From positions 32,001 to 96,000 of IMG/VR virus record IMGVR_UViG_3300032316_000329: DNA of 64,000 bases. The stretch is one strand, 5' to 3'. Origin of the DNA: a virus. This document shows, piece by piece, positions 30,701 through 64,000 of this stretch; the stretch's first letter is position 1; every line of letters starts with the position of its first letter. The notes beneath the pieces were generated by a model. That model saw only the letters and a program-made list of their open reading frames with translations. It was not told where the DNA came from and searched no databases. Both the position numbers and the translations under genes were made by a program.

Positions 30701-32114
30701 TAGATCAAAGTATGGTATTCTTGCCGAGGACTTTTCTAGCCATCTACTAGGGGATACCAACAATCCTGATTATTCGTGTGCTGTTGATGTTAATGGAACA
30801 TATTCACCAACTGGTGGTATTATGATGCCGCGAGTTATCAGCAATCTTGTTAAGCTAGATGCTAATAACGAATCAGCAGTTGGATTGAGCGTATCAGATG
30901 ATAAAGTAATGCTTGCTTATAAAACAACACCTGCTATCGTCCAAGATAAGGCAACAAAATCTGTCCCTGTTGCTGATTATCTATTTGGTGATTTCAGAGG
31001 CCAGATCATTACAACTCCAGAACAAGATATCTGGAAAGATATTACAACCCTACCACCAGAGGTTGCTTCTATTCCAAAACCTGTAATGCAGTTTGATATC
31101 ACTATGACTGAAATTACAAATATCACTAATAATCAGACTAACACAACAAATATTAAAAAAGAGATCACTAATGTTCATCCATCAAATACAATAACTATTA
31201 TTGAAAGATCAGATCCGCCACCTCCACCACCAACAACAACAACTTATGATAAGTTACTATTAACATTTACCAATGGATTTGCTAAACTAGGTCAGTTGAA
31301 GTGGAGGTATTTTGGTAAGGATCTACATCAAACATTTGGAGATCCTACAAGAGATTACTTTATTACAACTGTTTTAACACCACATCAAATTTGGGAGACA
31401 GGTGAATTTTATGGTGATTATGGTGCTTCCGATGTAGATGGTTCCGGTCGTGTTAATACTACTGCATTAAATACTTTACAACTTTATGCTTTGACTAGAA
31501 AAGGAATTGATGCAGTCGGATTTCCTATCGGTTCAGGTGCTCTATCCGTTTCGGACCAGAGAATTGAATTTATTTTTGATGTTTATAGTGCCATTCTTAA
31601 CAGACCTCCGGATTTCCCTGGCCTCTGTTTCTGGTGCATAAAAAGCGCACATTTTAAATGGTCGGAACAGCAAACAAGAGAAGCAATGAATACAGCGGCT
31701 ATTCAGAATAATGAGTTAGGTTCCGGTATGGATCCTAATTTAACAGCTGTATTAACGCCTATTTATATTATAGGTGATGATTTAAATGCGGCTCTTGTAG
31801 GTAGTCAATCTGTAAGAGGAACTGGCGATGTTCTAAATTATGAGACAATGAAAACACCAGATGGTAGAACAGCGGTTGCAGCGAGAACACCGGAAAGTAT
31901 GATTAGGTCTTTCTATGAAACATATCTGGGAAGAGACGCGGAAGAAGGCGGATTGGGATTCTGGATGGGACAGTATAATGATTGGGTTAAGCAATATGGT
32001 GATACTGCTGATGGAAGAGCAAAGGCTGCCCAATTACTTGAAGCAGGATTCAAAAATTCACCAGAAAGACAAACTATTGGCGGAGATAATTTTAAAAGTG
32101 AATACTACTACTAA
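27726..32114 (+). CDS. VrlC/DUF4815-like virion protein, N-terminal part, with C-terminal DUF4214-like repeats
   Basis: PYYDDFDESKNFYRVLFRPGYAVQARELTQLQ, LARRTYDESGNY, RYTMADIG. Confidence 0.85.
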   Translation: MASANVVNTLIVPAASKVAPYYDDFDESKNFYRVLFRPGYAVQARELTQLQTILQNQIERFGRHVFVNGSSVIGGKLDISDITTLNVDIQYANSDVDIASFKDKTITYSSGNTDIQARVIQTSPSVNGSPACLHVKYITGSEFSNGATIITTTGGHYANLSSNANMSSNGSIAFIYDSIYFMQGFFIKVPKQSVVVSKHNRLANSKVGLEVVDDILTEYNDASLLDPAQESSNYQAPGATRYQVSLNLANRSLDSVDDEKWIEVARLNNGIITKLQSTPMYSEIEEVLARRTYDESGNYIVRPFKTRIDSGITDPANNFTLVVSPGKAYVYGFECENQAATLLNLPRARSTRSRSDYNIRVNYGNYVIVDHLQGTFDTAGQGIVDLHCVDTANVVTSSNAGYYSTKIGTARLRDLNFYGGSSNTTTRQYELYFYDNKFNVITDNAASTANSTSEIVLGTANSSLANDAYTGAYIKVTAGPASGDLRLITDYDGANKRANVALPFSATTTSASRYELRFDITDVDGFVQWTTFTGGASSNAAATIDMLNKDDGTLNGNTFISEATFGDSFYQLPSSYIAGVSNTSYIYRRVYNSVTFSSGNATITSASNEQFEGETTTSNTSSTIMDNFLVIVTNPTGSARTVGDQVKITATVNTTTPETSVLRTGNTSESFTATVYSKMYINNPSPRTKTLVSSNTFVFSSSSPSAQINGPTGSNTKVYLASAQVVIKNPSKSNESLYISDVQAVKKVYYSPSEPSVGQTLTGLEDVTNKFTVDRGHRAEWYDHASVKVKAGFNLPQGHYIVCCRYYSHSADSGFFAVNSYQNLNTIILEDNIPIDTGYANIPVVNGTRMSDIIDFRPSRPSASGTSNWNFSFARVPIATTNFNCDFSYYRERRDIVVMTVNDELKLIQGDSTGNFFPETPARSLLLHKIRVLPYTISRNDVFVESLDHRRYTMADIGAIDRRLKSMEYNVALNFLEKNAQGLVIKDVNGLDRSKYGILAEDFSSHLLGDTNNPDYSCAVDVNGTYSPTGGIMMPRVISNLVKLDANNESAVGLSVSDDKVMLAYKTTPAIVQDKATKSVPVADYLFGDFRGQIITTPEQDIWKDITTLPPEVASIPKPVMQFDITMTEITNITNNQTNTTNIKKEITNVHPSNTITIIERSDPPPPPPTTTTYDKLLLTFTNGFAKLGQLKWRYFGKDLHQTFGDPTRDYFITTVLTPHQIWETGEFYGDYGASDVDGSGRVNTTALNTLQLYALTRKGIDAVGFPIGSGALSVSDQRIEFIFDVYSAILNRPPDFPGLCFWCIKSAHFKWSEQQTREAMNTAAIQNNELGSGMDPNLTAVLTPIYIIGDDLNAALVGSQSVRGTGDVLNYETMKTPDGRTAVAARTPESMIRSFYETYLGRDAEEGGLGFWMGQYNDWVKQYGDTADGRAKAAQLLEAGFKNSPERQTIGGDNFKSEYYY

Positions 32115-53248: not shown

Positions 53249-54406
53249 ATGCCAAATTTTAATAGTCCAGAAGGCGAACTAACTGATCTGTTTATGACGG
53301 ATGTAAGTATCCTGGATAGTTTTGTTGGTAATGAGTTGTGGGGATGGGGACGTAATGGTTATGGACAACTTGGTGACAACACAAGAACCAAAAGATCCTC
53401 ACCAGTCCAGACCGTATCTGGTGGAACCAACTGGAAGTTCGTTGCTTGTGGTTTTAATTACACCACTACCATTAAAACAGATGGAACGTTGTGGTCGTGG
53501 GGAGGAAATAGTTATGGTCAACTAGGTGATAACTCCAGAACCCATAGATCCTCTCCAGTCCAAACTGTATCTGGTGGTACCAATTGGAAACTAGTTGCTT
53601 GTGGTAGTTATCACACCACTGCCATTAAAACAGATGGTACCCTTTGGACCTGGGGTCAGAGTATTTATGGTCAACTAGGTGATAACTCAACAAACAATAG
53701 ATCCTCACCAGTCCAGACCGTATCTGCTGGTACAAATTGGAAACAAGTTGCTGGTGGTTTCAATCACACCACTGCCATTAAAACAGATGGTACATTATGG
53801 ACATGGGGAGGTAATGGTTATGGTCAACTAGGTGATAACTCAACAACCAGTAGATCCTCACCAGTTCAGACCGTATCTGCTGGTACCAATTGGAAACAGG
53901 TTGCTTGTGGTCAACACACTGCCGCCATCAAAACAGATGGTACATTATGGTTGTGGGGACGTAATGAATACGGTGCACTAGGTGATAATACAACAACCAA
54001 TAGATCCTCACCAGTCCAAACCGTATCTGGTGGAACCAACTGGAAACAAGTTGCTGGTGGTATTTACCACACCGCTGCCATTAAGACTGATGGAACCCTT
54101 TGGACCTGGGGATATAATACTGACGGTCAACTAGGTGACAATACAACAACCGATAGATCCTCACCAGTCCAAACCGTATCTGGTGGTACCAACTGGAAAC
54201 AGGTTGCTGGTGGTCGGTTTAACACTGCTGCCATTAAAACTGATGGTACATTGTGGGGATGGGGACGTAATACTGACGGTCAACTAGGTGATAACTCCAT
54301 AACCCATAGATCCTCACCGGTCCAGACTGTATCTAGTGGAACCAACTGGAAACTGGTTGCTGGTGGTAGTTATCACACTGCTGCCGTAACCTATACAGAA
54401 TCATAA
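53249..54406 (+). CDS. RCC1-repeat beta-propeller (7 repeats)
   Basis: 7 x ~50-aa GTLWxWGxNxxGQLGDN...SSPVQT...WKxVAxG..HTAAIKTD. Confidence 0.92.
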   Translation: MPNFNSPEGELTDLFMTDVSILDSFVGNELWGWGRNGYGQLGDNTRTKRSSPVQTVSGGTNWKFVACGFNYTTTIKTDGTLWSWGGNSYGQLGDNSRTHRSSPVQTVSGGTNWKLVACGSYHTTAIKTDGTLWTWGQSIYGQLGDNSTNNRSSPVQTVSAGTNWKQVAGGFNHTTAIKTDGTLWTWGGNGYGQLGDNSTTSRSSPVQTVSAGTNWKQVACGQHTAAIKTDGTLWLWGRNEYGALGDNTTTNRSSPVQTVSGGTNWKQVAGGIYHTAAIKTDGTLWTWGYNTDGQLGDNTTTDRSSPVQTVSGGTNWKQVAGGRFNTAAIKTDGTLWGWGRNTDGQLGDNSITHRSSPVQTVSSGTNWKLVAGGSYHTAAVTYTES

Positions 54407-54423
54407 TAAGAGGAAACAAAAAG

Positions 54424-55089
54424 ATGTTTGTAATCGTTCAAGACAATTTTGTAATAGATGGACCAAGGGATTGGAACAAGAAGAAGTTTGAAGAAGTTCT
54501 TTTAGAAGATTGTGAAGTAGATTTCACACTTGAAACCAGAAACGAATCCAACCTTCCAATCGTTGTTTCCGACACTGTTAAGATTCTTCCGGTAACCAAA
54601 CTTCCTGATCCAGTATTTAATTCCAAGACACAGATTCTTCAAGGGCCATTCTGGAACCTATCAGACACATTGGCCGAAGAATATTACACCGCGCAAGATA
54701 TGCCAGTGGATGCTGTTAAGAACTTTCTTACCTCTATTGTTGCTAATGCTCGGTATATTAAAGAAACTGCTGGTATTAAAATGACTATTCAAGGAACTCA
54801 GGTTTCTGTTGATACTGCTCGTGGTTCAAGAGATATATTCTTTCAGGCATTTTTATCTATTGGTGAAACTGAAACAATGAACTGGAAGTTTCCTGAGACC
54901 TGGTTAGAACTCACAAAGAGTGATCTGGGTTTGATTGTTTCTGCGGGTCGTAACCATATTCAGACATCTTTTGATTGGGAGAATGGTTGGGTCAATAGAG
55001 TTAGTGCTGCTGTTACATTGAATGATCTTAATACACTTTATAATGAACTGGAAGCGGAATTAAAACCACAGACAAATCCAACAGTATAA
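54424..55089 (+). CDS. DUF4376-like tail-associated chaperone
   Basis: ARYIKETAGI...DTARGSR...NWKF...IQTSFDWE. Confidence 0.6.
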   Translation: MFVIVQDNFVIDGPRDWNKKKFEEVLLEDCEVDFTLETRNESNLPIVVSDTVKILPVTKLPDPVFNSKTQILQGPFWNLSDTLAEEYYTAQDMPVDAVKNFLTSIVANARYIKETAGIKMTIQGTQVSVDTARGSRDIFFQAFLSIGETETMNWKFPETWLELTKSDLGLIVSAGRNHIQTSFDWENGWVNRVSAAVTLNDLNTLYNELEAELKPQTNPTV

Positions 55090-55098
55090 GGTCGTATA

Positions 55099-56316
55099 AT
55101 GGCATATGGTTCAAATACAAATTATACTATTAGTGGTGTTGATGTAGGTAGACAACTTGTAACTAAAAGTTACTTGATTGATGTTTATCCATCTTTGGTT
55201 GGTACGTTTAAACAGGCAGGGTTATGGACCTGGGGGCGTAATGGTGCCGGTCAACTAGGTGACAATACAACAACCGGTAGATCATCTCCAGTTCAAACTG
55301 TATCTGGTGGTACAAATTGGAAACTGGTTGCTGGTGGTGGTTATCACACTGCTGCCATTAAGACTGATGGAACCCTATGGACCTGGGGAGGTAATTCTTA
55401 CGGTGCACTAGGCGACAATTCAACAAACTTTAGATCCTCACCAGTCCAGACTGTATCTGCTGGTACAAATTGGAAACAGGTTGCTTGTGGTTTTTTTCAC
55501 ACTGCTGCTATTAAGACTGATGGAACGTTATGGTTATGGGGAGATAATAGAAACGGTCAACTAGGTGACAATACAACAGCCCATAGATCCTCTCCAGTCC
55601 AAACTGTATCTAGTGGAACTAACTGGAAACTGGTTGCTAGTGGTCGTTATCACACCGCTGCCATTAAAACCGACGGAACCCTTTGGACCTGGGGAGCTAA
55701 TTATTCCGGTCAACTAGGTGACAATTCAACAAACCGTAAATCCTCACCAGTCCAGACCGTATCTGGAGGAACCAACTGGAAACTGGTTGCTTGTGGTGGT
55801 TTTCACAATGCTGCCATTAAAACTGATGGAACCCTTTGGACCTGGGGAGCTAATTATGCCGGTAATCTAGGTGATAACTCAATAACCAGTAAATCCTCAC
55901 CAGTCCAAACCGTATCTACTGGTACAAATTGGAAACTGGTTGCTGGTGGTAGTAGTCACACCTCTGCCATTAAGACTGATGGAACCCTATGGACCTGGGG
56001 ACATAATGGTTACGGTACACTAGGTGATAACTCCAGAACCCATAGATCCTCACCAGTCCAGACCGTATCTGGAGGAACCAACTGGAAACTGGTTGCTTGT
56101 GGTGGTTTTCACAATGCTGCCATTAAGACTGATGGAACCCTTTGGACCTGGGGATTTAATGCTTACGGTGCACTAGGTGATAACTCCGAAACCCGTAGAT
56201 CCTCACCAGTCCAAACCGTATCTGGTGGAACCAACTGGAAACAAGTTGCTGTTGGTGGTTATTACACTGCCTGTATCCGTGACGATTCAGCAGACATTTT
56301 CGGAAACACTATATGA
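55099..56316 (+). CDS. RCC1-repeat beta-propeller (7 repeats)
   Basis: same repeat consensus as 53249. Confidence 0.92.
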   Translation: MAYGSNTNYTISGVDVGRQLVTKSYLIDVYPSLVGTFKQAGLWTWGRNGAGQLGDNTTTGRSSPVQTVSGGTNWKLVAGGGYHTAAIKTDGTLWTWGGNSYGALGDNSTNFRSSPVQTVSAGTNWKQVACGFFHTAAIKTDGTLWLWGDNRNGQLGDNTTAHRSSPVQTVSSGTNWKLVASGRYHTAAIKTDGTLWTWGANYSGQLGDNSTNRKSSPVQTVSGGTNWKLVACGGFHNAAIKTDGTLWTWGANYAGNLGDNSITSKSSPVQTVSTGTNWKLVAGGSSHTSAIKTDGTLWTWGHNGYGTLGDNSRTHRSSPVQTVSGGTNWKLVACGGFHNAAIKTDGTLWTWGFNAYGALGDNSETRRSSPVQTVSGGTNWKQVAVGGYYTACIRDDSADIFGNTI

Positions 56317-56819
56317 TCCATCCTCTTGTGAAGATTATAACCATTGATGGTTTTTTTAGTCAAGAAGAGGCCACCAGATTAGGTGAAATAACCAGAAACC
56401 TTCAATACACTCAAAACCAATTAGGTCAAGAGATAGAACATTTCAATATGGTTCCAGAAAACGCCAATGAAATGTTCTCTTTCATTCTAAATACAAAGAT
56501 AGAGGTGGATGAAGATCGTTCAGGTATATTCAGAAAGCCAGAGTTATTCATACACTTTGAGGAATTTGATACTCTTGATGAATGGGTTTTTGTTTGTGTT
56601 CTGGAACATACTATGTTTAATATATATCAGCACGAAAGCGGTGCCAAGAGTGCTTTGGATGGGTATCAGTTTAATTACAGGAACCTTATGGAATGGGGTT
56701 CTAATACAAAAGTTTCCTATGAACTATTGCCTGGAGAAGGCGTTCTGTTTAGACCGTGGTTGTTTCATTCGTTTAGTGGTGGTTTAATTCAGATATTCAG
56801 ATTAAAAGAGAGAGAATAG
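56313..56819 (+). CDS. putative 2OG-Fe(II) oxygenase-fold protein (DUF6445-like)
   Basis: IxIDGFF start, IHFE, VLFRPWLFHS. Confidence 0.55.
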   Translation: MIHPLVKIITIDGFFSQEEATRLGEITRNLQYTQNQLGQEIEHFNMVPENANEMFSFILNTKIEVDEDRSGIFRKPELFIHFEEFDTLDEWVFVCVLEHTMFNIYQHESGAKSALDGYQFNYRNLMEWGSNTKVSYELLPGEGVLFRPWLFHSFSGGLIQIFRLKERE

Positions 56820-57971
56820 ATGCCAACTTTTTATCAGGTTAACGGTGTATCGTTTGATGATCTGTTTGTAAGAAATGATTCATTCACAGAAGGTGGGTTG
56901 TGGACCTGGGGAAATAATGGTCTGGGTGAATTAGGTGATAACTCCAGAACCCATAGATCATCTCCAGTCCAAACCGTATCTGCTGGTACAAATTGGAAAC
57001 AGGTTGCTGGTGGTGGTAATCACACCGCTGCCATTAAAACTGATGGAACATTATGGTTATGGGGTAGTAATTTTTTTGGCCGATTAGGTGACAATACACA
57101 AACCGATAGATCCTCACCAGTTCAAACTGTATCTGCTGGTACAAATTGGAAACAGGTTGCTTGTGGTGGTACTCATACCGCTGCCATTAAGACTGACGGA
57201 ACCCTATGGACATGGGGACGTAATTATAATGGCCGATTAGGTGACAATACAACAACCGATACAACCTCACCAGTCCAAACCGTATCTGCTGGTACAAATT
57301 GGAAACAGGTTGCTTGTGGTGGTAATCACACCGCTGCCATTAAGACTGATGGAACCCTTTGGACCTGGGGACGTAATACTAACGGTCAACTAGGTGATAA
57401 CTCTTTAACCCATAGATCCTCACCAGTTCAAACTGTATCTGGAGGAACCAATTGGAAACAAGTTGCTGGTGGCGATAGTCATACTGCTGCCGTTAAAACT
57501 GATGGAACATTATGGATGTGGGGAGGCAATAGTTATGGTCAACTAGGTGATAACTCTTTAACCCATAGATCCTCACCAGTTCAAACTGTATCTGCTGGTA
57601 CAAATTGGAAGTTTGTTGCCAGTGGATATTATGCACATACTGCTGCCATTAAGACTGATGGAACCCTATGGACATGGGGACGTAATAATTTCGGTCAACT
57701 AGGTGATAACTCTTTAACCCATAGATCCTCACCAGTTCAAACTGTATCTGGTGGTGCCAATTGGAAACAAGTTTCTTGTGGTCGTTTTTACACAACTACC
57801 ATTAAAACTGATGGAACCCTGTGGACATGGGGACGTAATAGTTATGGTCAACTAGGTGATAATACAACAACCGGTAGATCATCACCAGTCCAAACCGTAT
57901 CTGCTGGTACAAATTGGAAACTAGTTGCTTGTGGCACTTATTTTACCGTCTCCATCCGAGATCAGTGGTAA
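56820..57971 (+). CDS. RCC1-repeat beta-propeller (7 repeats)
   Basis: same repeat consensus as 53249. Confidence 0.92.
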   Translation: MPTFYQVNGVSFDDLFVRNDSFTEGGLWTWGNNGLGELGDNSRTHRSSPVQTVSAGTNWKQVAGGGNHTAAIKTDGTLWLWGSNFFGRLGDNTQTDRSSPVQTVSAGTNWKQVACGGTHTAAIKTDGTLWTWGRNYNGRLGDNTTTDTTSPVQTVSAGTNWKQVACGGNHTAAIKTDGTLWTWGRNTNGQLGDNSLTHRSSPVQTVSGGTNWKQVAGGDSHTAAVKTDGTLWMWGGNSYGQLGDNSLTHRSSPVQTVSAGTNWKFVASGYYAHTAAIKTDGTLWTWGRNNFGQLGDNSLTHRSSPVQTVSGGANWKQVSCGRFYTTTIKTDGTLWTWGRNSYGQLGDNTTTGRSSPVQTVSAGTNWKLVACGTYFTVSIRDQW

Positions 57972-57979
57972 TTTACAAG

Positions 57980-57987
57980 ACTAAATA
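57980..57987 (+). promoter_or_regulatory. late promoter variant ACTAAATA for the modification operon
   Basis: intergenic, immediately upstream of the methyltransferase. Confidence 0.55.
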
Positions 57988-58020
57988 CCAAAGTTAGACA
58001 ATTATTTTATGAGGGTTGTT

Positions 58021-58566
58021 ATGATAAAGTTGAACCTTGGTTCTGGTTACAAACATATTGATGGTTATCTAAATATTGATTCGGATCCAAAGTGTAATCC
58101 AGATCACTTACTAAACCTTGAAACCGACAGACTTCCCTTTGATGATAACACGGTAGACGAAGTTCTCTGCCACCATATTCTAGAACACATTGGTGATGGT
58201 TTCATTCATTTAATGAAAGAAATCTACCGAGTTTGTAAAAACGGTGCTATACTAGACATAGCAGTTCCACATCCCAGGCACGATGTTTTCCTCATAGACC
58301 CCACTCATAAACGGCCAATCTACTCTGATACTATTGATATGTTCTCTAAAAAAAGGAACCAAAAAACTATTGAAAATAAAGGTATGGAAACAACTCTTGG
58401 TATAATGAATGACATTGACATAGAAGTATTTGCCACTGACTATGTTCTTGATGAATACTATCAAAAACTCTTTCAAACATTACCAAACGAACAATGTGAT
58501 ATAATTGCTCGGTCTTATAATAATGTTATTATTGAAATCCTAATCAAGGCAATGGTGAATAAGTGA
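58021..58566 (+). CDS. class I SAM-dependent methyltransferase
   Basis: KLNLGSG...NID, LPFDDNTVD, HILEH, EIYRVCK.G, DPTH; start 58009 or 58021. Confidence 0.85.
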   Translation: MIKLNLGSGYKHIDGYLNIDSDPKCNPDHLLNLETDRLPFDDNTVDEVLCHHILEHIGDGFIHLMKEIYRVCKNGAILDIAVPHPRHDVFLIDPTHKRPIYSDTIDMFSKKRNQKTIENKGMETTLGIMNDIDIEVFATDYVLDEYYQKLFQTLPNEQCDIIARSYNNVIIEILIKAMVNK

Positions 58567-59885
58567 CAGTAGAATATCCAAACTGTGATCCTCTCGGAAC
58601 TGCCAAGTTTTTTATCAATTTAAAACAACCTGAAAAGGCCAAAGTTTCCCTTGATCAAGTAAAACCATATTGTCAGACAGTTCAACAGTTAGATGCTATT
58701 GGCAAACTCTATGCTGATTGTAGAGAATGGAATGATTCTCTTGAAATTGCCAAGAAGATTCATTCCCTACTTCCAAACAATCAATCCAAATATGATATTA
58801 GAACAAATATTGTTCGTTCTTTACTCAATTTAAACAATCCAGAAGAAGCACTAATTTATATCAATATGAATGAAAAGGTGAATCCAAACGATCATCCTAA
58901 TCGTATGGATAAAGCAATGGCTTTATTTCTACTAAACAAAAAAATAGAAGCCGAAGCAATACTGCGACAAATATTAGAAGAACCACATAATGATGATATT
59001 GACACAAGAGTAAAATTTAATCTAGGAACCTATGACATTAGAAATGGTAATTTTAAAGATGGTATCAAAAATTTTCTTCTTCACGGTAGAAAGTTAAATA
59101 TATGGGAGTCATATACTCTTCCGAAAAATAATTATTGGAAAGGCGATATACAACCTGGTAAAACTATTCTGATGTGTCACGATGGTGGTATTGGTGATGA
59201 AATAATCAATATAAGGTTTCAGAAACACATTAAAAAACTTGGTATGAATCCTATTTGGTTTACAGCAAGAAAAGACCTGGCTAAAGTCTTTGAAAGAAAT
59301 GGATTTACTGTAACAACAAATCCTAATGATTATAAATCTGATTGGTTGTGGTATTATTCAATGACTTCGCCAGTATTGCTTGATGTTGATGAGAATGACT
59401 TGTGGGATGGTCCTTATATAGAACCAATCAGAAAAGCAGAGAAACTTTCTGGTAAATTAAAGATCGGCCTAAAATGTGTTGGTAATCCAAAATATGATCA
59501 GGATCTAAACAGAACAGTTCCCTATAAAGAAGTTCTTGATATTTTACCAAAAGATGCGACGGTCTATTCATTTCATATTGACGAAGATATTGATGATCCT
59601 AGATTGATATCTCTTAAAGATAAGATCAAAACTTGGGACGATACGCTTGACTTTATAGATCAAATGGACTATATGATATCTAGTTGTACCTCAACAGCAC
59701 ACGCGGCATCTGCTATGGGTAAAAAGACTTTTGTTATGGTTCCTATCCTTAATTATTACCTTTGGGCAAAACCAGAAAACCACTCAAAGTGGTATTCGGA
59801 AAATACCAGAATAATCAGACAAACAACATATAAAAATTGGTATGATCCGATCAAAGAGTTGAAAGAACTCCTCAATGGTCAATAG
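58563..59885 (+). CDS. TPR-containing GT-B glycosyltransferase (GT9/heptosyltransferase-like)
   Basis: helical TPR-like N-terminus; WKG...GKTIL..DGGIGDEI..IRF; WDDT...MDYMISSCTSTAHAASAMGK; SKWY. Confidence 0.75.
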   Translation: MTVEYPNCDPLGTAKFFINLKQPEKAKVSLDQVKPYCQTVQQLDAIGKLYADCREWNDSLEIAKKIHSLLPNNQSKYDIRTNIVRSLLNLNNPEEALIYINMNEKVNPNDHPNRMDKAMALFLLNKKIEAEAILRQILEEPHNDDIDTRVKFNLGTYDIRNGNFKDGIKNFLLHGRKLNIWESYTLPKNNYWKGDIQPGKTILMCHDGGIGDEIINIRFQKHIKKLGMNPIWFTARKDLAKVFERNGFTVTTNPNDYKSDWLWYYSMTSPVLLDVDENDLWDGPYIEPIRKAEKLSGKLKIGLKCVGNPKYDQDLNRTVPYKEVLDILPKDATVYSFHIDEDIDDPRLISLKDKIKTWDDTLDFIDQMDYMISSCTSTAHAASAMGKKTFVMVPILNYYLWAKPENHSKWYSENTRIIRQTTYKNWYDPIKELKELLNGQ

Positions 59886-60240
59886 AATTGTCAATTCGGT
59901 CAATATTAATTTAACTTCCATATCAACGAATGAACCGATTTCGGATGTTCCTTGTGGTTCGTGTAATATGTGTTGTAAGTTGTTATCACCTTTTCTCACA
60001 ACCGAAGAGATTGCTTCTGGTAAATATCCATTAAGTATAATTAACCCTTCTAATACAAACGAAGGGCCAACGGTGGTTTTGTTTAGAAATATAGAGGGTG
60101 GTTGTGGTATGTTAATAGATAATAAGTGTTCTATCTATGATGATAGACCTATTGCTTGTCGGCAATTTGATTGTCGCAGAGGTCATCATCCAAAAACAAA
60201 TATTGTGGCTAAAGAAAAGTTTGGAATTGATATACAATGA
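59875..60240 (+). CDS. YkgJ/CxxCxxCC cysteine-cluster protein
   Basis: CGSCNMCC...CGML...CSIYDDRPIACRQFDC. Confidence 0.85.
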   Translation: MVNRIVNSVNINLTSISTNEPISDVPCGSCNMCCKLLSPFLTTEEIASGKYPLSIINPSNTNEGPTVVLFRNIEGGCGMLIDNKCSIYDDRPIACRQFDCRRGHHPKTNIVAKEKFGIDIQ

Positions 60241-61067
60241 AACACGGAAAAACAGCTGTCTATACAATCCTCAAAAACGAAAAAAAATATATTGAAAAAT
60301 GGTTATACTATGCCAATCCTTTTGACTATAAGGTTCTTCTTGACACGGGATCAACCGATGGTTCTTGGGAACTATTACAAGAATATGCCTCAAAAGATCC
60401 TAAACTAATCATTGAACAAAAAACCTTCGATCCATGGCGGTTTGATACAGCAAGAAACTATAATCTCAACATGGTACCAGAAGAAGTCGTCTGGTGCCTC
60501 TCTCCTGACTTGGACGAGTATTATTCCATCAATACACACGATGAAATGGAAGTTATTATATCTGCTGTTCCTGATATTACTTGTATTGCTTCCGATAGAT
60601 TAGATATTTATTCCCGTGTTGTTCGTGTCGGGCCTCCAAATCTACAAGCAACTAACAAGATTCACAGAAGGCACGATTATATCTGGAAAGAAAGAATCTA
60701 CGAACACATCTCCTGGAAACATGGTGGGTATGAGAAAGAATTATATTCTGATGATATCTTTCTGGTTCATGATCAAGACTTTAAAAAGAAAGAGAGATCA
60801 GAACTCTATATCAGACTAATGGAAGAGGAATGGGCCGAGAATCCTAAAAACTCATGGAATAATTGGTTTCTTCTTTATCATTACTTTAAGTCACAACAAC
60901 TGGAAAAGTATATTCCTGTTGCTTGTAATTACTTGCTATTTCACACAAAAAAACAAGATAAGAACTATGAGGATGTTACTAATACTCTAAAAGGAATTTT
61001 AGCGAGAGAGAAGATATCCGATCAACATAAACATTTAATTGTTGAAGCATTGAAGGTTGCTAGATGA
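60237..61067 (+). CDS. glycosyltransferase family 2
   Basis: YTILKNE, LDTGSTDGS, WRFDTARN, DLDE (DxD), IYEH. Confidence 0.85.
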   Translation: MKHGKTAVYTILKNEKKYIEKWLYYANPFDYKVLLDTGSTDGSWELLQEYASKDPKLIIEQKTFDPWRFDTARNYNLNMVPEEVVWCLSPDLDEYYSINTHDEMEVIISAVPDITCIASDRLDIYSRVVRVGPPNLQATNKIHRRHDYIWKERIYEHISWKHGGYEKELYSDDIFLVHDQDFKKKERSELYIRLMEEEWAENPKNSWNNWFLLYHYFKSQQLEKYIPVACNYLLFHTKKQDKNYEDVTNTLKGILAREKISDQHKHLIVEALKVAR

Positions 61068-61852
61068 AAACATTTCACTTTCTATCAGGATTACCTAGAA
61101 CAGGGTCAACGGTTCTTGAATCATTACTCAATCAAAATCCGCAAGTATATGTTACACCAACATCACCTCTACTACATCTATTAAATAAAAATCAAGAAGA
61201 GTTTCATCAATGTCCCGAGGTTATTGCTAATCCCGTCTCAGATATGCTTACTAATGTTTCTCGTGGTATGATAGAAGGTTGCTGGGAACACAGACCAGAA
61301 CCTATCATCATTGACAAGCATCGCGGTTGGGGTAAGAATATGCCGGCGACTACGATTGTTTTTGATAAAGAAATTAAAATGGTTGCTACTATCCGAGACA
61401 TACCTTCTATAATGGCCAGTTGGTTAACTCTTATTAGAAATCAACCAAACAACTTTATCAAAAGAACTGTTATTGAAAAAGGTTTTGAAGCAACAGAAGA
61501 AAATATGATGGCAGAAATGTGGTTTGGTCATGTTCTAGATTGTGTTGAGTCGGTTGCTATGGCAAGAAAGACAGCATCTAATAGAATGTTAGAAATACGG
61601 TATGATGACTTTATTAAAGATTCAAAACAACAGATTTCTAAAATTGAATCTTTTCTTGAACTACCTTCTTTTGAATATGATTTTGAAAACATACAAAATA
61701 ACAACATAAACAATGATCACGAAGCATTTGGATTCATTGATATGCATAAGGTCAGACCAAAGGTGGAAAAGATTGCTAAACATCCAAAAGATGTATTAGG
61801 TGATAGTCTTTACAATAGGTTTGTTGATCTTGAAAGGCAGTATTTGAGATGA
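61064..61852 (+). CDS. sulfotransferase
   Basis: GLPRTGSTVLESLLNQNP 5'-PSB loop; DKHRGW; RD...IMAS; RYDD. Confidence 0.88.
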   Translation: MKTFHFLSGLPRTGSTVLESLLNQNPQVYVTPTSPLLHLLNKNQEEFHQCPEVIANPVSDMLTNVSRGMIEGCWEHRPEPIIIDKHRGWGKNMPATTIVFDKEIKMVATIRDIPSIMASWLTLIRNQPNNFIKRTVIEKGFEATEENMMAEMWFGHVLDCVESVAMARKTASNRMLEIRYDDFIKDSKQQISKIESFLELPSFEYDFENIQNNNINNDHEAFGFIDMHKVRPKVEKIAKHPKDVLGDSLYNRFVDLERQYLR

Positions 61853-62274
61853 AAAAGATTTTAATTATGGGACTACCCGGTTCAGGCAAGACGACATTTG
61901 CCGAAGAGTTGAGAAAACAACTATTAGCAAAGAGTAGAACTGCGGCCTGGTTTAATGCCGATGTTATTCGTAAAATGCATAACGATTGGGACTTTTCACC
62001 AGAAGGTCGTATAAGACAGGCTAATAGAATGAGAATATTGGCCGATGGTATGATGACTGATTATGTTATCTGCGATTTTGTGGCACCAACAGAAGAAATC
62101 AGAACACAATTTAAGGCAGACTTTACAATTTGGATGGACACCGAAACAAAATCAGATTATGAAGATACTGATAAATTGTTTGAGCGTCCAACCAAATGGG
62201 ATTATATTGTTAAGATGAAAGATGTTCCTAATACAGTTAGTCCATGCGTTGAACAAATTCTGAAACTTGGGTAA
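61849..62274 (+). CDS. cysC: adenylylsulfate (APS) kinase-like protein
   Basis: GLPGSGKTT, NADVIR...DWDFSPEGR, FVAP...R, FERP. Confidence 0.75.
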   Translation: MKKILIMGLPGSGKTTFAEELRKQLLAKSRTAAWFNADVIRKMHNDWDFSPEGRIRQANRMRILADGMMTDYVICDFVAPTEEIRTQFKADFTIWMDTETKSDYEDTDKLFERPTKWDYIVKMKDVPNTVSPCVEQILKLG

Positions 62275-63049
62275 ACTTATGGTCAAATACTTTTCTCGCA
62301 CAACTGTATGTCTGATACTTGCCTTTAATAATCTCAGGCATATCAATGAACTTAACCGGAACATTATACTTATCAGCAACAATCACTGCCACATCTAAGA
62401 ATGAAATAGGATGGGAACAACCTAAATCAAAGATACCTTCTTTGGCATTTGTTGTAATAATCTTAATGATATCACCAACCCAAACAAAGTCACGATAGGT
62501 ATTTTCCGACCCTTTGAAAATCTTAATCACTCCATCATTCTTAGCCTGCTCCGAGAAACGATAGACTGGTGAGGTACAAAAGTCCGATTTCTTTTCATCG
62601 GCACCATATACATTGAAATAACGATAACCTGTAATCGGTGCGGTAAAAGATGACCTATTTTCCATAACCCACAAATCAACGGTATACTTAGAAACAGCAT
62701 AGTAGTTTAGTGGATTATAATCATATGTTTTATTAACCGCCATAGACTGGCCATATACAGAACCAGAAGATGCATAGTGAACAGGAATCTTATGCTTAAT
62801 GGCCTTCTCAAAAATCTCAACCGATGACTGGACATTCCATCGCATTACCTTCAATACATCTAGTTCGGTTGTATTAGAGATAGCACCTTGGTGATAAATC
62901 ATTGTAATCTTATCCCACGGTACCTGTTTTGCCAATTCAATTGGGTCACCATCTACGGCATCAAAACCATATACCTTATTACCTTGTTGTTCTAAATGCT
63001 TTACAAGGTTTCTACCAATAAATCCTTTATGTCCTGTAACTAAAATCAT
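62237..63049 (-). CDS. hldD: ADP-L-glycero-D-manno-heptose 6-epimerase
   Basis: LVTGHKGFIGRNL, HQGAISNTTE, YASSGSVYG, PLNYYAVSK, RYFNVYG, RDFVWVGD, GKYQTYS. Confidence 0.85.
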   Translation of the reverse strand: MILVTGHKGFIGRNLVKHLEQQGNKVYGFDAVDGDPIELAKQVPWDKITMIYHQGAISNTTELDVLKVMRWNVQSSVEIFEKAIKHKIPVHYASSGSVYGQSMAVNKTYDYNPLNYYAVSKYTVDLWVMENRSSFTAPITGYRYFNVYGADEKKSDFCTSPVYRFSEQAKNDGVIKIFKGSENTYRDFVWVGDIIKIITTNAKEGIFDLGCSHPISFLDVAVIVADKYNVPVKFIDMPEIIKGKYQTYSCARKVFDHKFTQVSEFVQRMD

Positions 63050-63396
63050 TGTCCGTCTCCTGGTATAACTCTATAACTATCACTATCATAATGTGTGGTT
63101 GATACTTCTATAAGAACCGAATTGTCCTCTAGAGCCTCAATCTGATGTGGTCGACCTGGTTCATTTACCCAAGTATCACCTTCTTTAAGTATAATATTAT
63201 GTTTAGAGGCATCTTTTGTTTCTATCCAGTGGATTTTAAACATACCGCTTTGAACATAGAATGTTTCATGTTTCTTCATATGGAAATGCATTGACCCTTT
63301 TGAACCGGCCTTGTCGTGTATAAGGAGTTTGCCACAATACATTTCATTATTGGCAAAAATGACCTCTCTACCCCATTTCTTTTCAACAGTGTCCAT
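63046..63396 (-). CDS. cupin (mannose-6-phosphate isomerase/sugar isomerase-like)
   Basis: VEKKWGRE, YCGKLL, SMHFHMKKHETF, PGRPHQI, EVST...DSYR. Confidence 0.75.
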   Translation of the reverse strand: MDTVEKKWGREVIFANNEMYCGKLLIHDKAGSKGSMHFHMKKHETFYVQSGMFKIHWIETKDASKHNIILKEGDTWVNEPGRPHQIEALEDNSVLIEVSTTHYDSDSYRVIPGDGQ

Positions 63397-64000
63397 TCAA
63401 ATGCTCCAATATATTCGTGGTAGAAAATCCTTCAACATACGGTATAATAGTTGTAACAACTGGCCGTCCATTAACATCATATGTTTTAGAAACATAGTCA
63501 CCACCTTTTGTAATGATATCTGGATTAACTTTCTTGATCAACTCGTATGGTGAATCCTCTTCAAATATAATTACCTCGTCCACACAAGAAAGGGACTCCA
63601 ATATTAATTTTCGGTCCTCTTGTTTGTTAAACGGTCTATCGTTACCTTTGCGCCTTCTCACAGAATCATCCGAGTTCAAACCAACAATAAGATAATCACC
63701 AAGTTCTTTTGACTTTTGTAGATATTCAATATGTCCTTTGTGAATAACATCAAAGCAACCGTTGGTGAATACAATTTTCTTTTCTACGGTTCTTATATCA
63801 TCCTCAGTTAGTGTATAGGTTCCAAAGTGACTAACCGATAATGCTGCTAGTTTATTCGCCTTGACACAGGCCTTATGTATATCTTCTCCTTTGGCCAGAT
63901 AATATGTCATAGCGGCAATAAACACATCACCAGCACCCGTAACATCGGCAACCTCTTTATCAATACCTTCTAATTTGATTATCCGACCTTCCTCTACAAT
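63383..64000 (-). CDS. hldE: bifunctional heptose kinase/adenylyltransferase, 5'-truncated by window end
   Basis: frame open to 64000; PfkB DVTGAGD motif fused to FTNGCFDVIHKGH...GLNSD...KGGDY...STT. Confidence 0.9.
   Translation of the reverse strand: MVEEGRIIKLEGIDKEVADVTGAGDVFIAAMTYYLAKGEDIHKACVKANKLAALSVSHFGTYTLTEDDIRTVEKKIVFTNGCFDVIHKGHIEYLQKSKELGDYLIVGLNSDDSVRRRKGNDRPFNKQEDRKLILESLSCVDEVIIFEEDSPYELIKKVNPDIITKGGDYVSKTYDVNGRPVVTTIIPYVEGFSTTNILEHLNGHC

Follow-up and report, generated by a model that had tools for sequence, protein, structure and literature searches.

Which molecules are modified by the glycan-active enzymes of this T4-like lake phage? Its 165-kb genome carries the methane-oxidation gene pmoC and, within the window analysed here (64,000 nucleotides, positions 32,001 to 96,000 of the virus record), a run of transferase genes that lies between RCC1 propeller genes and genes for ADP-heptose synthesis. 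The initial annotation saw in this run a late-expressed pathway that would put a heptosylated, sulfated and methylated glycan on virion proteins. We favor a related reading, which in our judgement has an even chance of being right: the cytoplasmic glycosylation, sulfation and methylation of putative attachment proteins (RCC1 or fibre).

Organization of the locus

The nine ORFs of the transferase operon and heptose cassette are present where the initial annotation placed them and with the domains that it named (Table 1). Six of them are translationally coupled on the plus strand (58009-62274) in the order SAM methyltransferase, TPR plus GT9-like GT-B protein, CxxCxxCC protein, GT2, sulfotransferase and APS-kinase-like protein, with successive overlaps of 4, 11, 4, 4 and 4 nt. 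They converge, as had been described, on the minus-strand genes hldD-cupin-hldE, and the APS-kinase-like gene and hldD overlap by 38 nt. Inspection by eye revealed no evident membrane-spanning segment in the six enzymes. The accessory content of such modules is variable and can include carbamoyltransferase, GT4, a second sulfotransferase and methyltransferases of the FkbM and O-methyltransferase types.

Table 1 Features of the RCC1 block, the transferase operon and the heptose cassette (window positions)
Feature	Position	Strand	Evidence or remark
RCC1 seven-blade propeller genes (three)	53249-54406, 55099-56316, 56820-57971	+	Pfam RCC1, WD40_RLD
DUF4376 gene	54424-55089	+	within the RCC1 block (53249-57971)
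DUF6445-like jelly-roll protein, 168 aa	56313-56819	+	Atlas fold likeness
Late-promoter-like motif ACTAAATA	57980-57987	+	22 nt 5' of the methyltransferase ATG
Class I SAM methyltransferase, 185 aa	58009-58566	+	Methyltransf_11 2e-7; phrog_6636
TPR (residues 1-180) + GT9-like GT-B (residues 194-440)	58563-59885	+	AF2, Foldseek, profile comparison
CxxCxxCC metal-binding protein, 121 aa	59875-60240	+	PF03692
GT2 (GT-A) glycosyltransferase	60237-61067	+	Glyco_tranf_2_4, PF00535; phrog_13126
PAPS-type sulfotransferase	61064-61852	+	Sulfotransfer_1, Sulfotransfer_3, 1e-14
Short APS-kinase-like P-loop protein, 141 aa	61849-62274	+	PF01583, 43 bits
HldD-like ADP-heptose 6-epimerase, 270 aa	62237-63049	-	TIGR02197 9e-59, 199 bits
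Metal-type cupin	63046-63396	-	Cupin_2; weak WbuC-like similarity
HldE, bifunctional heptose-7-P kinase / heptose-1-P adenylyltransferase	63383-64000, onward to genome position 96612	-	PRK11316 2e-55

The motif that heads the operon is, as first claimed, of the type found at the canonical T4 late genes of this genome. In the window as a whole, CTAAATA shows no enrichment; yet of its 42 copies in the genome, 22 precede a start on the same strand by 60 nt or less (3.8% of positions qualify), the gap being most often 20-26 nt. It also heads gp21, gp22, gp25 and fibre genes, with gaps of 20-32 nt. The late timing proposed for the operon agrees with the motif found here but does not extend to the whole group, as two relatives (L013 and L015) have near-consensus sigma-70 promoters in the same place. 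A sigma-70-like promoter is also present 5' of hldE.

The domain matches bear out the identities of the methyltransferase, the GT2 and the sulfotransferase. With the N-terminal domain of P0265, a natural fusion protein, the GT2 shares 34% identity (1e-34). The sulfotransferase, whose sequence shows the 5'-phosphosulfate loop PRTGST and an RD..S motif, occurs in 46 of 76 RCC1-centred loci. Its neighbor had been called an APS kinase. The family match stands and APS kinases are its best PDB relatives (3.5e-5), but the match to PF01583 is confined to the N-terminal two thirds, the lid region is absent and the scores are far under the NCBIfam cut-offs. A search of the 165-kb genome did not find ATP sulfurylase. 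The CxxCxxCC protein matched none of the NCBIfam models, so a FliB-like role is only hypothetical. It belongs to a clade-specific core: its gene lies directly 3' of the TPR-GT9-like gene in most close relatives and is mostly missing in the S-SRM01-like clade.

The TPR-GT9-like enzyme

The TPR matches of the 440-aa protein are weak by sequence, and its C-terminal domain is detectable through fold and profile comparison only: Pfam GT9 gives the window's protein no score, PF01075 is present in distant members of the family, and hhalign against E. coli GT9s gave 84%. The AF2 model (pLDDT 89) has SPINDLY, OGT and XcOGT as its best whole-chain Foldseek matches, and the C-terminal domain taken separately best fits the GT9 structure 3tov, TibC, WaaF and WaaC (Z 14.4-15.5; a generic GT-B reaches 11.6). 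Fold and profile evidence agree that the protein is GT9-like, which upholds its first assignment. In the model, the catalytic domain is equally close to TibC, a protein heptosyltransferase, and to the LPS enzymes WaaC and WaaF. Capsule polymerases, too, can have TPR domains, and 8qoy is among the fold matches.

Three residues, D212 (at the G-D position in GT9), R317 and H380, do not vary among family members of 25-50% identity, a conservation that makes an active enzyme likely; the sugar-binding Asp of WaaC is replaced by Cys in the family. Identity among the fetched relatives is 55-64%, and the genome holds no canonical GT9. Two natural fusions are known: in BUCT-ZZ01 the GT9-like domain is retained, the TPR is nearly gone and a methyltransferase is fused to the protein, and P0265 joins GT2, TPR and GT9-like domains. 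These fusions, together with the overlaps of the six genes, link the enzymes in one pathway. The family also has cellular uses, as giant proteins of bacteria with 3-7 TPR-GT9 modules show.

Linkage to the RCC1 genes

By comparative genomics, the conserved unit is made up of RCC1 propeller genes, the TPR-GT9-like enzyme and the sulfotransferase, often with GT2. The unit recurs in the cultured cyanophages S-SRM01 and BUCT-ZZ01 (26-32% identity), and the marine virus AG-345-E08 has the RCC1/TPR-GT9-like adjacency as well (26-32% identity). The module is thus seen in phages of cyanobacteria too, and pmoC suggests that phages of methanotrophs are among its carriers. In 24 close relatives the TPR-GT9-like gene is nearly always 3' of the RCC1 genes and, across 50,697 phage records, the T4-like phages with RCC1 are exactly those with the enzyme. 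Of the RCC1-centred IMG/VR contigs, 52 extend downstream by 5 kb or more, and 42 of these contain the enzyme. Its place is always within the RCC1 block or downstream of it, with RCC1 genes on both sides in 25 loci; about one fifth of the RCC1 loci lack the enzyme. This co-occurrence across distant phages supports a functional tie between the enzymes and the RCC1 genes, and we propose that the products of the RCC1 block are acceptors or partners of the enzymes. The SSPVQTVS repeats, which had been taken as a sign of the acceptor, cannot serve as such evidence, since they are a structural RCC1 motif that is equally conserved in loci without the enzyme. In the Atlas comparison the 168-aa jelly-roll protein of the block is similar to DUF6445 and 2OG-oxygenase folds, but HxD is missing at the DUF6445-equivalent position.

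The heptose cassette

Cassettes of this kind have already been annotated in marine cyanophages. The HldD-like protein has the GxxGxxG and YxxxK motifs, and its 199 bits fall below the TIGR02197 cut-off of 274.6. Full-length HldE, read in the whole genome, has 392-409 aa, PfkB and CTP_transf_like domains and the motifs GAGD and HxGH; its start is likely the ATG at residue 18, and the divergent intergenic region upstream is 65 nt long. The cupin is a constant companion of the heptose genes, and 35 cyanophage records have a homologue (44-47% identity) within their heptose cassettes. A whole-genome search found neither gmhA nor gmhB, which might have lain beyond the window.

The cassette is a rare accessory, present in a minority of relatives and absent from S-SRM01 and from complete relatives that retain the TPR-GT9-like transferase. 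Heptose as the general donor, as first supposed, does not hold up: the donor is uncertain because most relatives lack the heptose genes and because the WaaC Asp is replaced by Cys. ADP-heptose is nevertheless a plausible donor in this phage. In the heptose-carrying relatives L004/L005 and L006, searches with the window's genes detected no glycosyltransferase besides the TPR-GT9-like one. No other consumer of heptose was found there or in the genome, which counts in favor of protein decoration.

Possible functions of the module

In the decoration pathway that we favor, the TPR domain would hold the protein substrate and the GT9-like domain would add the first sugar, here plausibly heptose from ADP-heptose; the latter would be made from host sedoheptulose-7-P by phage HldE and HldD with host GmhA and GmhB. 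The GT2 would extend the glycan, the sulfotransferase and the methyltransferase would tailor it, and PAPS would come from host APS, perhaps aided by the APS-kinase-like protein. Transcription from the T4-type late promoter would place the transferases alongside the structural genes. We infer the acceptor, the donor sugar and the order of these steps, as well as any roles that the CxxCxxCC protein and the cupin may have in them. By analogy with SPINDLY, OGT, XcOGT and FlmG, the TPR plus GT-B architecture would argue for protein decoration, and the late-type motif common to gp21, gp22 and gp25 also counts for it. Against it stand the RCC1 loci without the enzyme, the TPR-poor BUCT-ZZ01, the sigma-70-type promoters of two relatives, the TPRs of capsule polymerases and the independence of the blade SSP motif from the enzyme.

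The main alternative, which we judge less likely, is a remodelling of the envelope glycans of the host: working from the cytoplasmic side, the enzymes would modify intermediates of LPS core, O-antigen or exopolysaccharide in the infected cell. The heptosylated, sulfated and methylated surface glycan would mask the receptor of the RCC1 proteins, and superinfection would be excluded or the progeny kept from sticking to debris. Characterised GT9s are mostly LPS heptosyltransferases, ADP-heptose is an LPS precursor and WaaC and WaaF are among the best fold matches, yet we know of no characterised LPS heptosyltransferase with a TPR domain. Among the Pfam hits of the cassette genes and of those neighbouring ORFs that were scanned, the Wzx, Wzy, ligase and priming-transferase families did not appear, and no genes for export, flippase, polymerase, ligase or priming functions appeared in the scanned parts of the island. 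The pairing of a receptor-binding gene with receptor-modifying enzymes would yield an equal co-occurrence with RCC1 and thus account for the linkage. The position of the enzyme between RCC1 genes in 25 loci counts against remodelling. The accessory content is variable like O-antigen or Nod-factor tailoring sets, and genes of fibre-region islands in aquatic T4-like phages have been interpreted as host-glycan remodelling (PMC7029224; PMC12801897); nevertheless, 55-64% identity among relatives would be unusual if the enzyme tracked variable host glycans, and the module is common to phages of cyanobacteria and, judging from pmoC, of methanotrophs. As to timing, the sigma-70-like promoters (L013, L015 and before hldE) would permit early expression, whereas the late-type motif of this phage speaks against remodelling.

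An acceptor of another kind, such as a host protein (pilus, S-layer or flagellin), a small molecule or phage DNA, is very unlikely: the cellular uses implied by the giant bacterial TPR-GT9 proteins would fit it, but it leaves the RCC1 linkage unexplained. In the case of DNA, the known T4 DNA glucosyltransferases lack a TPR domain and do not depend on a sulfotransferase, and no nucleotide-modification gene is adjacent. The least probable reading would make the TPR-GT9-like protein an assembly factor or chaperone of the RCC1 propellers with no catalytic activity, comparable to PnsB1, and the other enzymes unrelated morons of a hypervariable island. In plants, PnsB1 is a GT9-like protein with a structural role in NDH. 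The GT9-like NDH subunit 7wff_a is matched with Z 14.2, and the Cys in place of the WaaC Asp and the failure of Pfam GT9 to score the protein point the same way; moreover, TPR proteins are frequently partners of chaperones, and dedicated chaperones are a common requirement of phage fibres. Such a role is hard to reconcile with the invariance of the Asp at the catalytic-base position, R317 and H380 over 25-50% identity, with the natural fusions to methyltransferase and GT2, with the steady company of the sulfotransferase (46/76 loci) and with the translational coupling of the six genes.

Comparison with known systems

If the phage decorates its own proteins, several systems may be compared with it. 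Freeman et al. (2023, cited in PMC12801897) are said to have described virion glycosylation in mycobacteriophages, and the chlorovirus PBCV-1 has capsid glycosylation enzymes. In both cases virus-encoded soluble glycosyltransferases and methyltransferases decorate the structural proteins of the virus, but the enzyme families and hosts are others and, to our knowledge, TPR-GT9 and heptose supply are lacking and sulfation plays no part. The heptose cassettes of marine cyanomyoviruses (S-CAM1, S-CAM3, P-TIM68, S-SSM7, S-SM2, S-T4, P-SSM5) have kinase/adenylyltransferase, cupin and HldD-like genes as here (33-47% identity). In S-CAM1 the cassette has the same location, fibre genes being on one side and gp13 on the other, and its epimerase is encoded on the opposite strand; gmhA and a carbamoyltransferase are present there in addition. 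In searches of the whole collection, neither the TPR-GT9-like enzyme nor the RCC1 genes were matched in these cyanomyoviruses.

OGT and SPINDLY (GT41) share the overall TPR plus GT-B architecture, but the domain-level fold comparison places the phage catalytic domain nearer to GT9 than to GT41, and the TM-scores of the phage enzyme to OGT and SPY are low (0.3-0.4). TibC and AAH, which act on TibA and AIDA-I, are GT9-related GT-B enzymes with a catalytic base Asp that use ADP-heptose and hyperglycosylate a repeat-built adhesin encoded next to them (PMC4358343). TibC matches the phage fold with Z 15.4 and no detected sequence similarity; the phage enzyme differs in having TPRs, and its CxxCxxCC protein is separate and encoded downstream. 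FlmG of Caulobacter crescentus is likewise a soluble cytoplasmic protein whose N-terminal TPR domain binds the substrate, flagellin, and whose C-terminal GT-B domain transfers the sugar, and its gene is located with those for the substrate and the sugar supply (PMC7591256). The likeness is one of architecture. FlmG transfers pseudaminic acid onto flagellins (PMC7591256), whereas the phage module also has enzymes for sulfation and methylation and presumably acts on RCC1 propellers.

Genome setting

The source record is 165,114 bp long, with a completeness rating of 99%. The nine ORFs of the initial annotation, i.e. the six genes of the cassette and the converging hldD-cupin-hldE, are real, as are their overlaps, and their domain assignments stand with refinements concerning HldE, the 'APS kinase' and the missing pathway genes. 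Fibre genes and three RCC1 propeller genes lie upstream of the cassette, and directly beyond the nine ORFs are found the T4-type neck proteins, gp15, a fibritin-like fibre, both terminase subunits, sheath, tube and portal. The large terminase is ~53% identical to its homologues in marine Synechococcus myoviruses. Since the genome also carries a full-length pmoC (362 bits), the phage groups with the freshwater pmoC-phages (PMC7674155).

Coordinates of the features discussed in the text
Feature	Location	Strand	Length
The window in the source record	32001-96000		64,000 nt
Three RCC1 propeller genes	window 53249-57971	+	
Jelly-roll protein	window 56313-56819		168 aa
Cassette	window 58009-62274	+	
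TPR enzyme	window 58563-59885	+	440 aa
Convergent overlap of the kinase-like gene and hldD	window 62237-62274		38 nt
Cupin	window 63046-63396	-	
Cupin in a cyanophage record	NC_020837 176821-177174		
Longer APS-kinase-like proteins of three relatives	L007:13316-14110; L013:5520-6362; L020:8672-9538		264-288 aa
Sigma-70 promoters ahead of the methyltransferase gene, two relatives	L013:340-434; L015:9380-9457		
RCC1-type double propeller of BUCT-ZZ01	L032:6131-8233		
pmoC (outside the window)	genome C1:146363-147076		
FtsH-like AAA+/M41 protease	genome C1:121286-123079 (L109:15287-17080)		597 aa

The TPR enzyme

Sequence searches provide only weak TPR matches for the TPR enzyme and no solved relatives; the profile of an alignment of close relatives searched against the PDB sequences gave nothing useful. 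An AlphaFold model was obtained from an alignment with 32 homologues (pLDDT 89, pTM 0.84; the single-sequence fold reached only pLDDT 35 and was not used). In this model, ten TPR helices span residues 12-177 and two Rossmann-like lobes come after them. The top Foldseek matches to the whole chain are SPINDLY, bacterial OGT homologues and human OGT, all of them protein O-glycosyltransferases fused to TPR. In an exhaustive domain-level comparison, the solved GT-B structures nearest to residues 194-440 are GT9 proteins: 3tov (Z 15.5), TibC (15.4), WaaF (15.0) and WaaC (14.4), followed by a GT9-like NDH subunit (14.2), while generic or unrelated GT-B folds are found from 11.6 down. The homology also extends to profiles: hhalign of a diverse family alignment (A4) against E. 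coli WaaC/F/Q/U aligned the GT9 C-lobe signature with a probability of 84% (E 7e-6), a result that requires the diverse alignment, as a shallow one of close relatives gave 6%. Distant family members (family-profile E 1e-103) carry PF01075 (Glyco_transf_9) with 109 and 83 bits. The window's TPR enzyme itself does not reach PF01075. The designation of this protein as TPR-GT9-like was thus right.

Residues D212, R317 and H380 are invariant among family members at 25-50% identity, which argues for an active enzyme. G211-D212, within 'GGIGDE', are invariant across the family and come just after the GT domain's first strand in the model (the hhalign alignment covers the C-lobe), and D212, in a first-loop G-D, would occupy the position of the catalytic Asp13 of WaaC (G12-D13). 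The GT9 C-lobe motif D-(S/T)-G...H-x-A-A-A is incomplete: its His (H380) and Ala residues align, but WaaC D261 aligns with C375, which is invariant in the clade (family consensus TSCTS). Asp261 of WaaC contacts the heptose, so the donor specificity may differ. The TPR enzyme also departs from the TibC/AAH type (BAHT), which has an N-terminal beta-barrel, a thumb formed by a beta-hairpin, and an in-chain Cys4 iron finger (PMC4358343). Its N-terminus is formed by the ten TPR helices, and a Cys4 insertion is not evident in its secondary-structure map or sequence.

The family is very common: clustering at 90% identity leaves 595 groups within the length range that was searched, and 644 representatives match at E<1e-30. 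Several giant proteins of 1,400-3,100 aa (P0139, P0145, P0157 and others), probably bacterial, contain three to seven TPR-GT9-like modules each.

Linkage to the RCC1 genes

Only four of 50,697 phage records have the TPR enzyme, and they are exactly the four T4-like records with RCC1 genes. Among 76 RCC1-centred viral contigs, the enzyme is present in 51 (42 of the 52 with at least 5 kb of downstream sequence), always inside or downstream of the RCC1 block; a family HMM did not detect it in the available stretch of the remaining contigs. The same 76 contigs frequently encode a sulfotransferase (46) and less so a GT2 (27), a methyltransferase (25) or heptose genes (5-7). The cultured freshwater cyanophage S-SRM01 has a homologue of the TPR enzyme at 28% identity, in the order long-tail-fibre distal subunit, RCC1, small gene, RCC1, TPR protein, 2OG oxygenase, four small genes and RCC1, continued by a sulfotransferase, one gene, a GT2, one gene and a sugar epimerase. 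In the Synechococcus phage BUCT-ZZ01, an RCC1 double propeller is directly followed by one 571-aa CDS that joins a GT9-like domain and a methyltransferase in a single frame. In the marine virus AG-345-E08 a TPR enzyme is surrounded by four RCC1 genes, and a sulfotransferase and the heptose trio (hldE-cupin-hldD) are present as well. In the metagenomic protein P0265 a GT2 (34% identical to that of the window) is fused to a TPR-GT9-like domain. The contig counts, the fusions and the cultured-phage loci therefore delineate a conserved unit made up of RCC1 propellers, the TPR-GT9-like enzyme and a sulfotransferase, often with a GT2. At the level of the clade, methylation and the CxxCxxCC protein form a core; a supply of heptose is accessory and rare.

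The 'SSPVQTVS' repeats of the RCC1 proteins had been proposed as acceptor sites. This idea had to be abandoned: the blade motif 'SSP' is equally conserved in the RCC1 genes of loci without the TPR enzyme, and is uninformative as an acceptor-site mark. The BUCT-ZZ01 double propeller, ~40-43% identical to the RCC1 proteins of the window, is labelled 'BNR repeat domain protein', which looks like a misannotation.

The cassette in related viruses

Across 24 IMG/VR relatives the genes follow one another in a nearly constant order, with RCC1 genes first, then the 168-aa jelly-roll protein, the methyltransferase, the TPR-GT9-like enzyme and CxxCxxCC; the GT2, sulfotransferase and kinase are variably present. 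Among these relatives the heptose trio is limited to L004/L005 and L006, on the opposite strand as in the window, and L011, on the same strand. HldE is missing from complete relatives of 160 and 216 kb and from S-SRM01. In place of the trio, the relatives' islands contain other tailoring genes, namely FkbM-type and O-methyltransferases, a canonical GT9, a NodU-like carbamoyltransferase and a HAD hydrolase; a second sulfotransferase, GT4, DUF6445 and DUF5672 are also found. In marine cyanomyoviruses the heptose trio, cupin included, has already been annotated (that of S-CAM1 is flanked by the fibre genes and gp13), but searches of the whole collection found neither the TPR enzyme nor RCC1 genes in those that have it.

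In the Atlas, the 168-aa protein, whose gene is flanked by RCC1 genes, has a DUF6445/2OG-oxygenase-like fold (TM 0.72-0.75). The HxD is missing from the position equivalent to that of its DUF6445 neighbours, and a single His is invariant. Its counterpart in the relative L007 is fused to a P-loop kinase, and viral GT2-DUF6445 fusions also exist.

Supply of heptose and sulfate

HldE is complete in the genome, as a 409-aa ORF with PF00294 (PfkB) and PF01467 (cytidylyltransferase-like), including the PfkB GAGD and the nucleotidyltransferase HxGH motifs. Its window part matches PRK11316 (2e-55) and rfaE_dom_II (8.5e-50), both under the equivalog cut-offs. Its start is probably the ATG 17 codons into the ORF, which is accompanied by a GGAG. 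TIGR02197 is by far the best match to the HldD-like protein (199 bits against 47 for the next family), under its cut-off of 274.6, and the protein is ~40 aa shorter than a typical HldD. The genes gmhA and gmhB, which might have been located beyond the window, were not found in the 165-kb genome: TIGR00441 and TIGR00213 had no match at E<=1, a tblastn search with the gmhA of S-CAM1 yielded a single insignificant match (E 0.03), and with a relative's HAD hydrolase as query there was no match. Likewise, ATP sulfurylase, CysD and a canonical GT9 were searched in the whole genome without success. The ADP-heptose pathway of the phage is thus incomplete and, given the lack of gmhA, gmhB, ATP sulfurylase and CysD, both the heptose and the PAPS branches depend on the host.

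The sulfotransferase matches PF00685 and PF13469 at 1e-14, above the cut-offs, and has a PRTGST 5'-PSB loop at residues 11-16, as in PAPS-dependent enzymes. The label 'APS kinase' is harder to maintain for its neighbor. Both the P-loop and the D..R...FS...R stretch are retained, and APS kinases are the closest of the solved structures (E 3.5e-5), but the protein has only 141 aa, of which residues 4-90 match positions 5-94 of the 152 in PF01583; the lid (APS-binding) region is missing and the NCBIfam scores are 24-38 bits for cut-offs of at least 127, so it is not a full-length CysC. The APS-kinase-like proteins of L007, L013 and L020 have an extra C-terminal domain, which in L007 gives a weak cytidylyltransferase-like match. 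This hints that the longer forms are a fused sulfate-activating enzyme, of which the window has a form without that domain. With regard to a possible FliB-type flagellin lysine methylase, the CxxCxxCC protein has the generic PF03692 domain as its sole match (36 bits), and no NCBIfam model matches at E<=0.001.

The cupin weakly resembles mannose-6-P and lyxose isomerases and contains a metal-type HxH..E..H motif. Its candidacy as a non-orthologous replacement of GmhA is weakened by S-CAM1 and Sf-CH8, each of which encodes an annotated phosphoheptose isomerase alongside the cupin. This small protein is a constant member of phage heptose cassettes (35 cyanophage records), labelled 'cysteine dioxygenase' in RefSeq and part of a nucleotidyltransferase in GenBank.

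Late motif and regulation

The overall frequency of CTAAATA in the window is not above expectation. Its positions are more informative: 38 of the 42 copies in the genome are on the gene-rich strand and 22 of the 42 lie at most 60 nt upstream of a same-strand start codon, while only 3.8% of positions would qualify; the modal gap is 20-26 nt. This TATAAATA-like element heads the genes of the prohead protease gp21, the scaffold gp22, the baseplate gp25, the portal and a fibre protein, so that it is found, as expected of a T4-type late promoter, at a fixed short distance 5' of late structural genes. The copy ahead of the cassette has a gap of 22 nt, within the modal gap, and by its class and spacing is a predicted promoter of the late type of this phage.

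The late character claimed for the cassette would hold for this phage and not for the module in general. At the same position, some relatives have (A/C/T)TAAATA, while in L013 and L015 near-consensus sigma-70 promoters (TTGACx-17-TATAAT) are found. Judging by these motifs, regulation of the cassette is predicted to differ among close relatives, and 'late' would be a trait of this phage. A scan for sigma-70 promoters and terminators around the cassette found 43 promoter-like sites against 33.6 expected from shuffles, which is not above the shuffles. A split between early heptose and late transferase genes thus comes down to strand and to a single promoter-like site in the 65-nt divergent spacer; in L011 the heptose cassette and the late genes share one strand. 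The kinase-like gene and hldD overlap convergently and no terminator-like site is found between them, so two transcripts would run into each other antisense.

Possible decoration of phage proteins or remodelling of host glycans

Two scenarios may explain this gene set. The one that we consider the best reading, and to which we give an even chance, is that the enzymes decorate the RCC1 and fibre proteins. It is favored by an architecture shared with the protein transferases OGT, SPY and FlmG, the TPR domain of FlmG being its substrate-binding part (PMC7591256), and by the closeness of the GT domain to TibC, an enzyme that adds heptose to a repeat adhesin whose gene is its neighbour (PMC4358343). 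The location of the TPR enzyme among the RCC1 genes, the enzyme fusions, the late-type motif and the absence of export or lipid-carrier genes among the scanned ORFs point in the same direction. Yet, the linkage to RCC1 would be the same if the enzymes remodelled a host glycan bound by the RCC1 proteins, and this is how such genes are usually read in the literature; in the present case we consider such a role less likely. Returning to protein decoration, the TPR enzyme is the sole candidate found for a GT9-type consumer of ADP-heptose in this genome and in two heptose-bearing relatives, so heptosylation by this enzyme is plausible in this phage. As a broader and tentative proposal, aquatic T4-like phages, including cultured cyanophages and pmoC-phages, might O-glycosylate their RCC1 receptor-binding propellers in the cytoplasm by means of a TPR-GT9-type enzyme dedicated to this task, with sulfation and methylation of the glycan as later steps.

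The heptose cassette as such was known before and has been annotated. For phages, no description of a TPR-GT9 module linked to RCC1 genes (with sulfation) was found in the searchable literature, and neither the pmoC-phage paper (PMC7674155) nor the S-SRM01 paper (PMC8557907) mentions the cassette. For twenty years, the glycosyltransferase, heptose and sulfotransferase genes that cyanophages and their relatives carry in fibre-region islands have been regarded, without any test, as 'LPS genes' that alter the host surface. The fact that a TPR-fused GT9-type enzyme accompanies RCC1 genes across distant phages, together with its fusions to tailoring enzymes, suggests that at least one recurrent gene set serves instead the self-decoration of phage attachment proteins. 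In that case, many cyanophage 'LPS genes' would obtain a real function and the structural-protein glycosylation encoded by viruses would have a new variant, including what to our knowledge would be the first sulfated glycoprotein on a bacteriophage virion. Virion glycosylation, known from mycobacteriophages, would then extend to Gram-negative and cyanobacterial systems with sulfation added, with a bearing on the host range, grazing and aggregation of abundant aquatic viruses. The module is present in two cultured phages, BUCT-ZZ01 and S-SRM01, and the host of the former, Synechococcus elongatus PCC 7942, is genetically tractable, so the question is directly testable.

Other genes headed by the late-type motif

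Two further genes of the phage are preceded by CTAAATA. One copy is located 52 nt 5' of the pmoC ORF, so this methane-monooxygenase subunit gene seems to share the late-type promoter of the structural genes. Another one lies ahead of the gene for an FtsH-like protease, in which the FtsH extracellular domain is present, with a gap of 24 nt.
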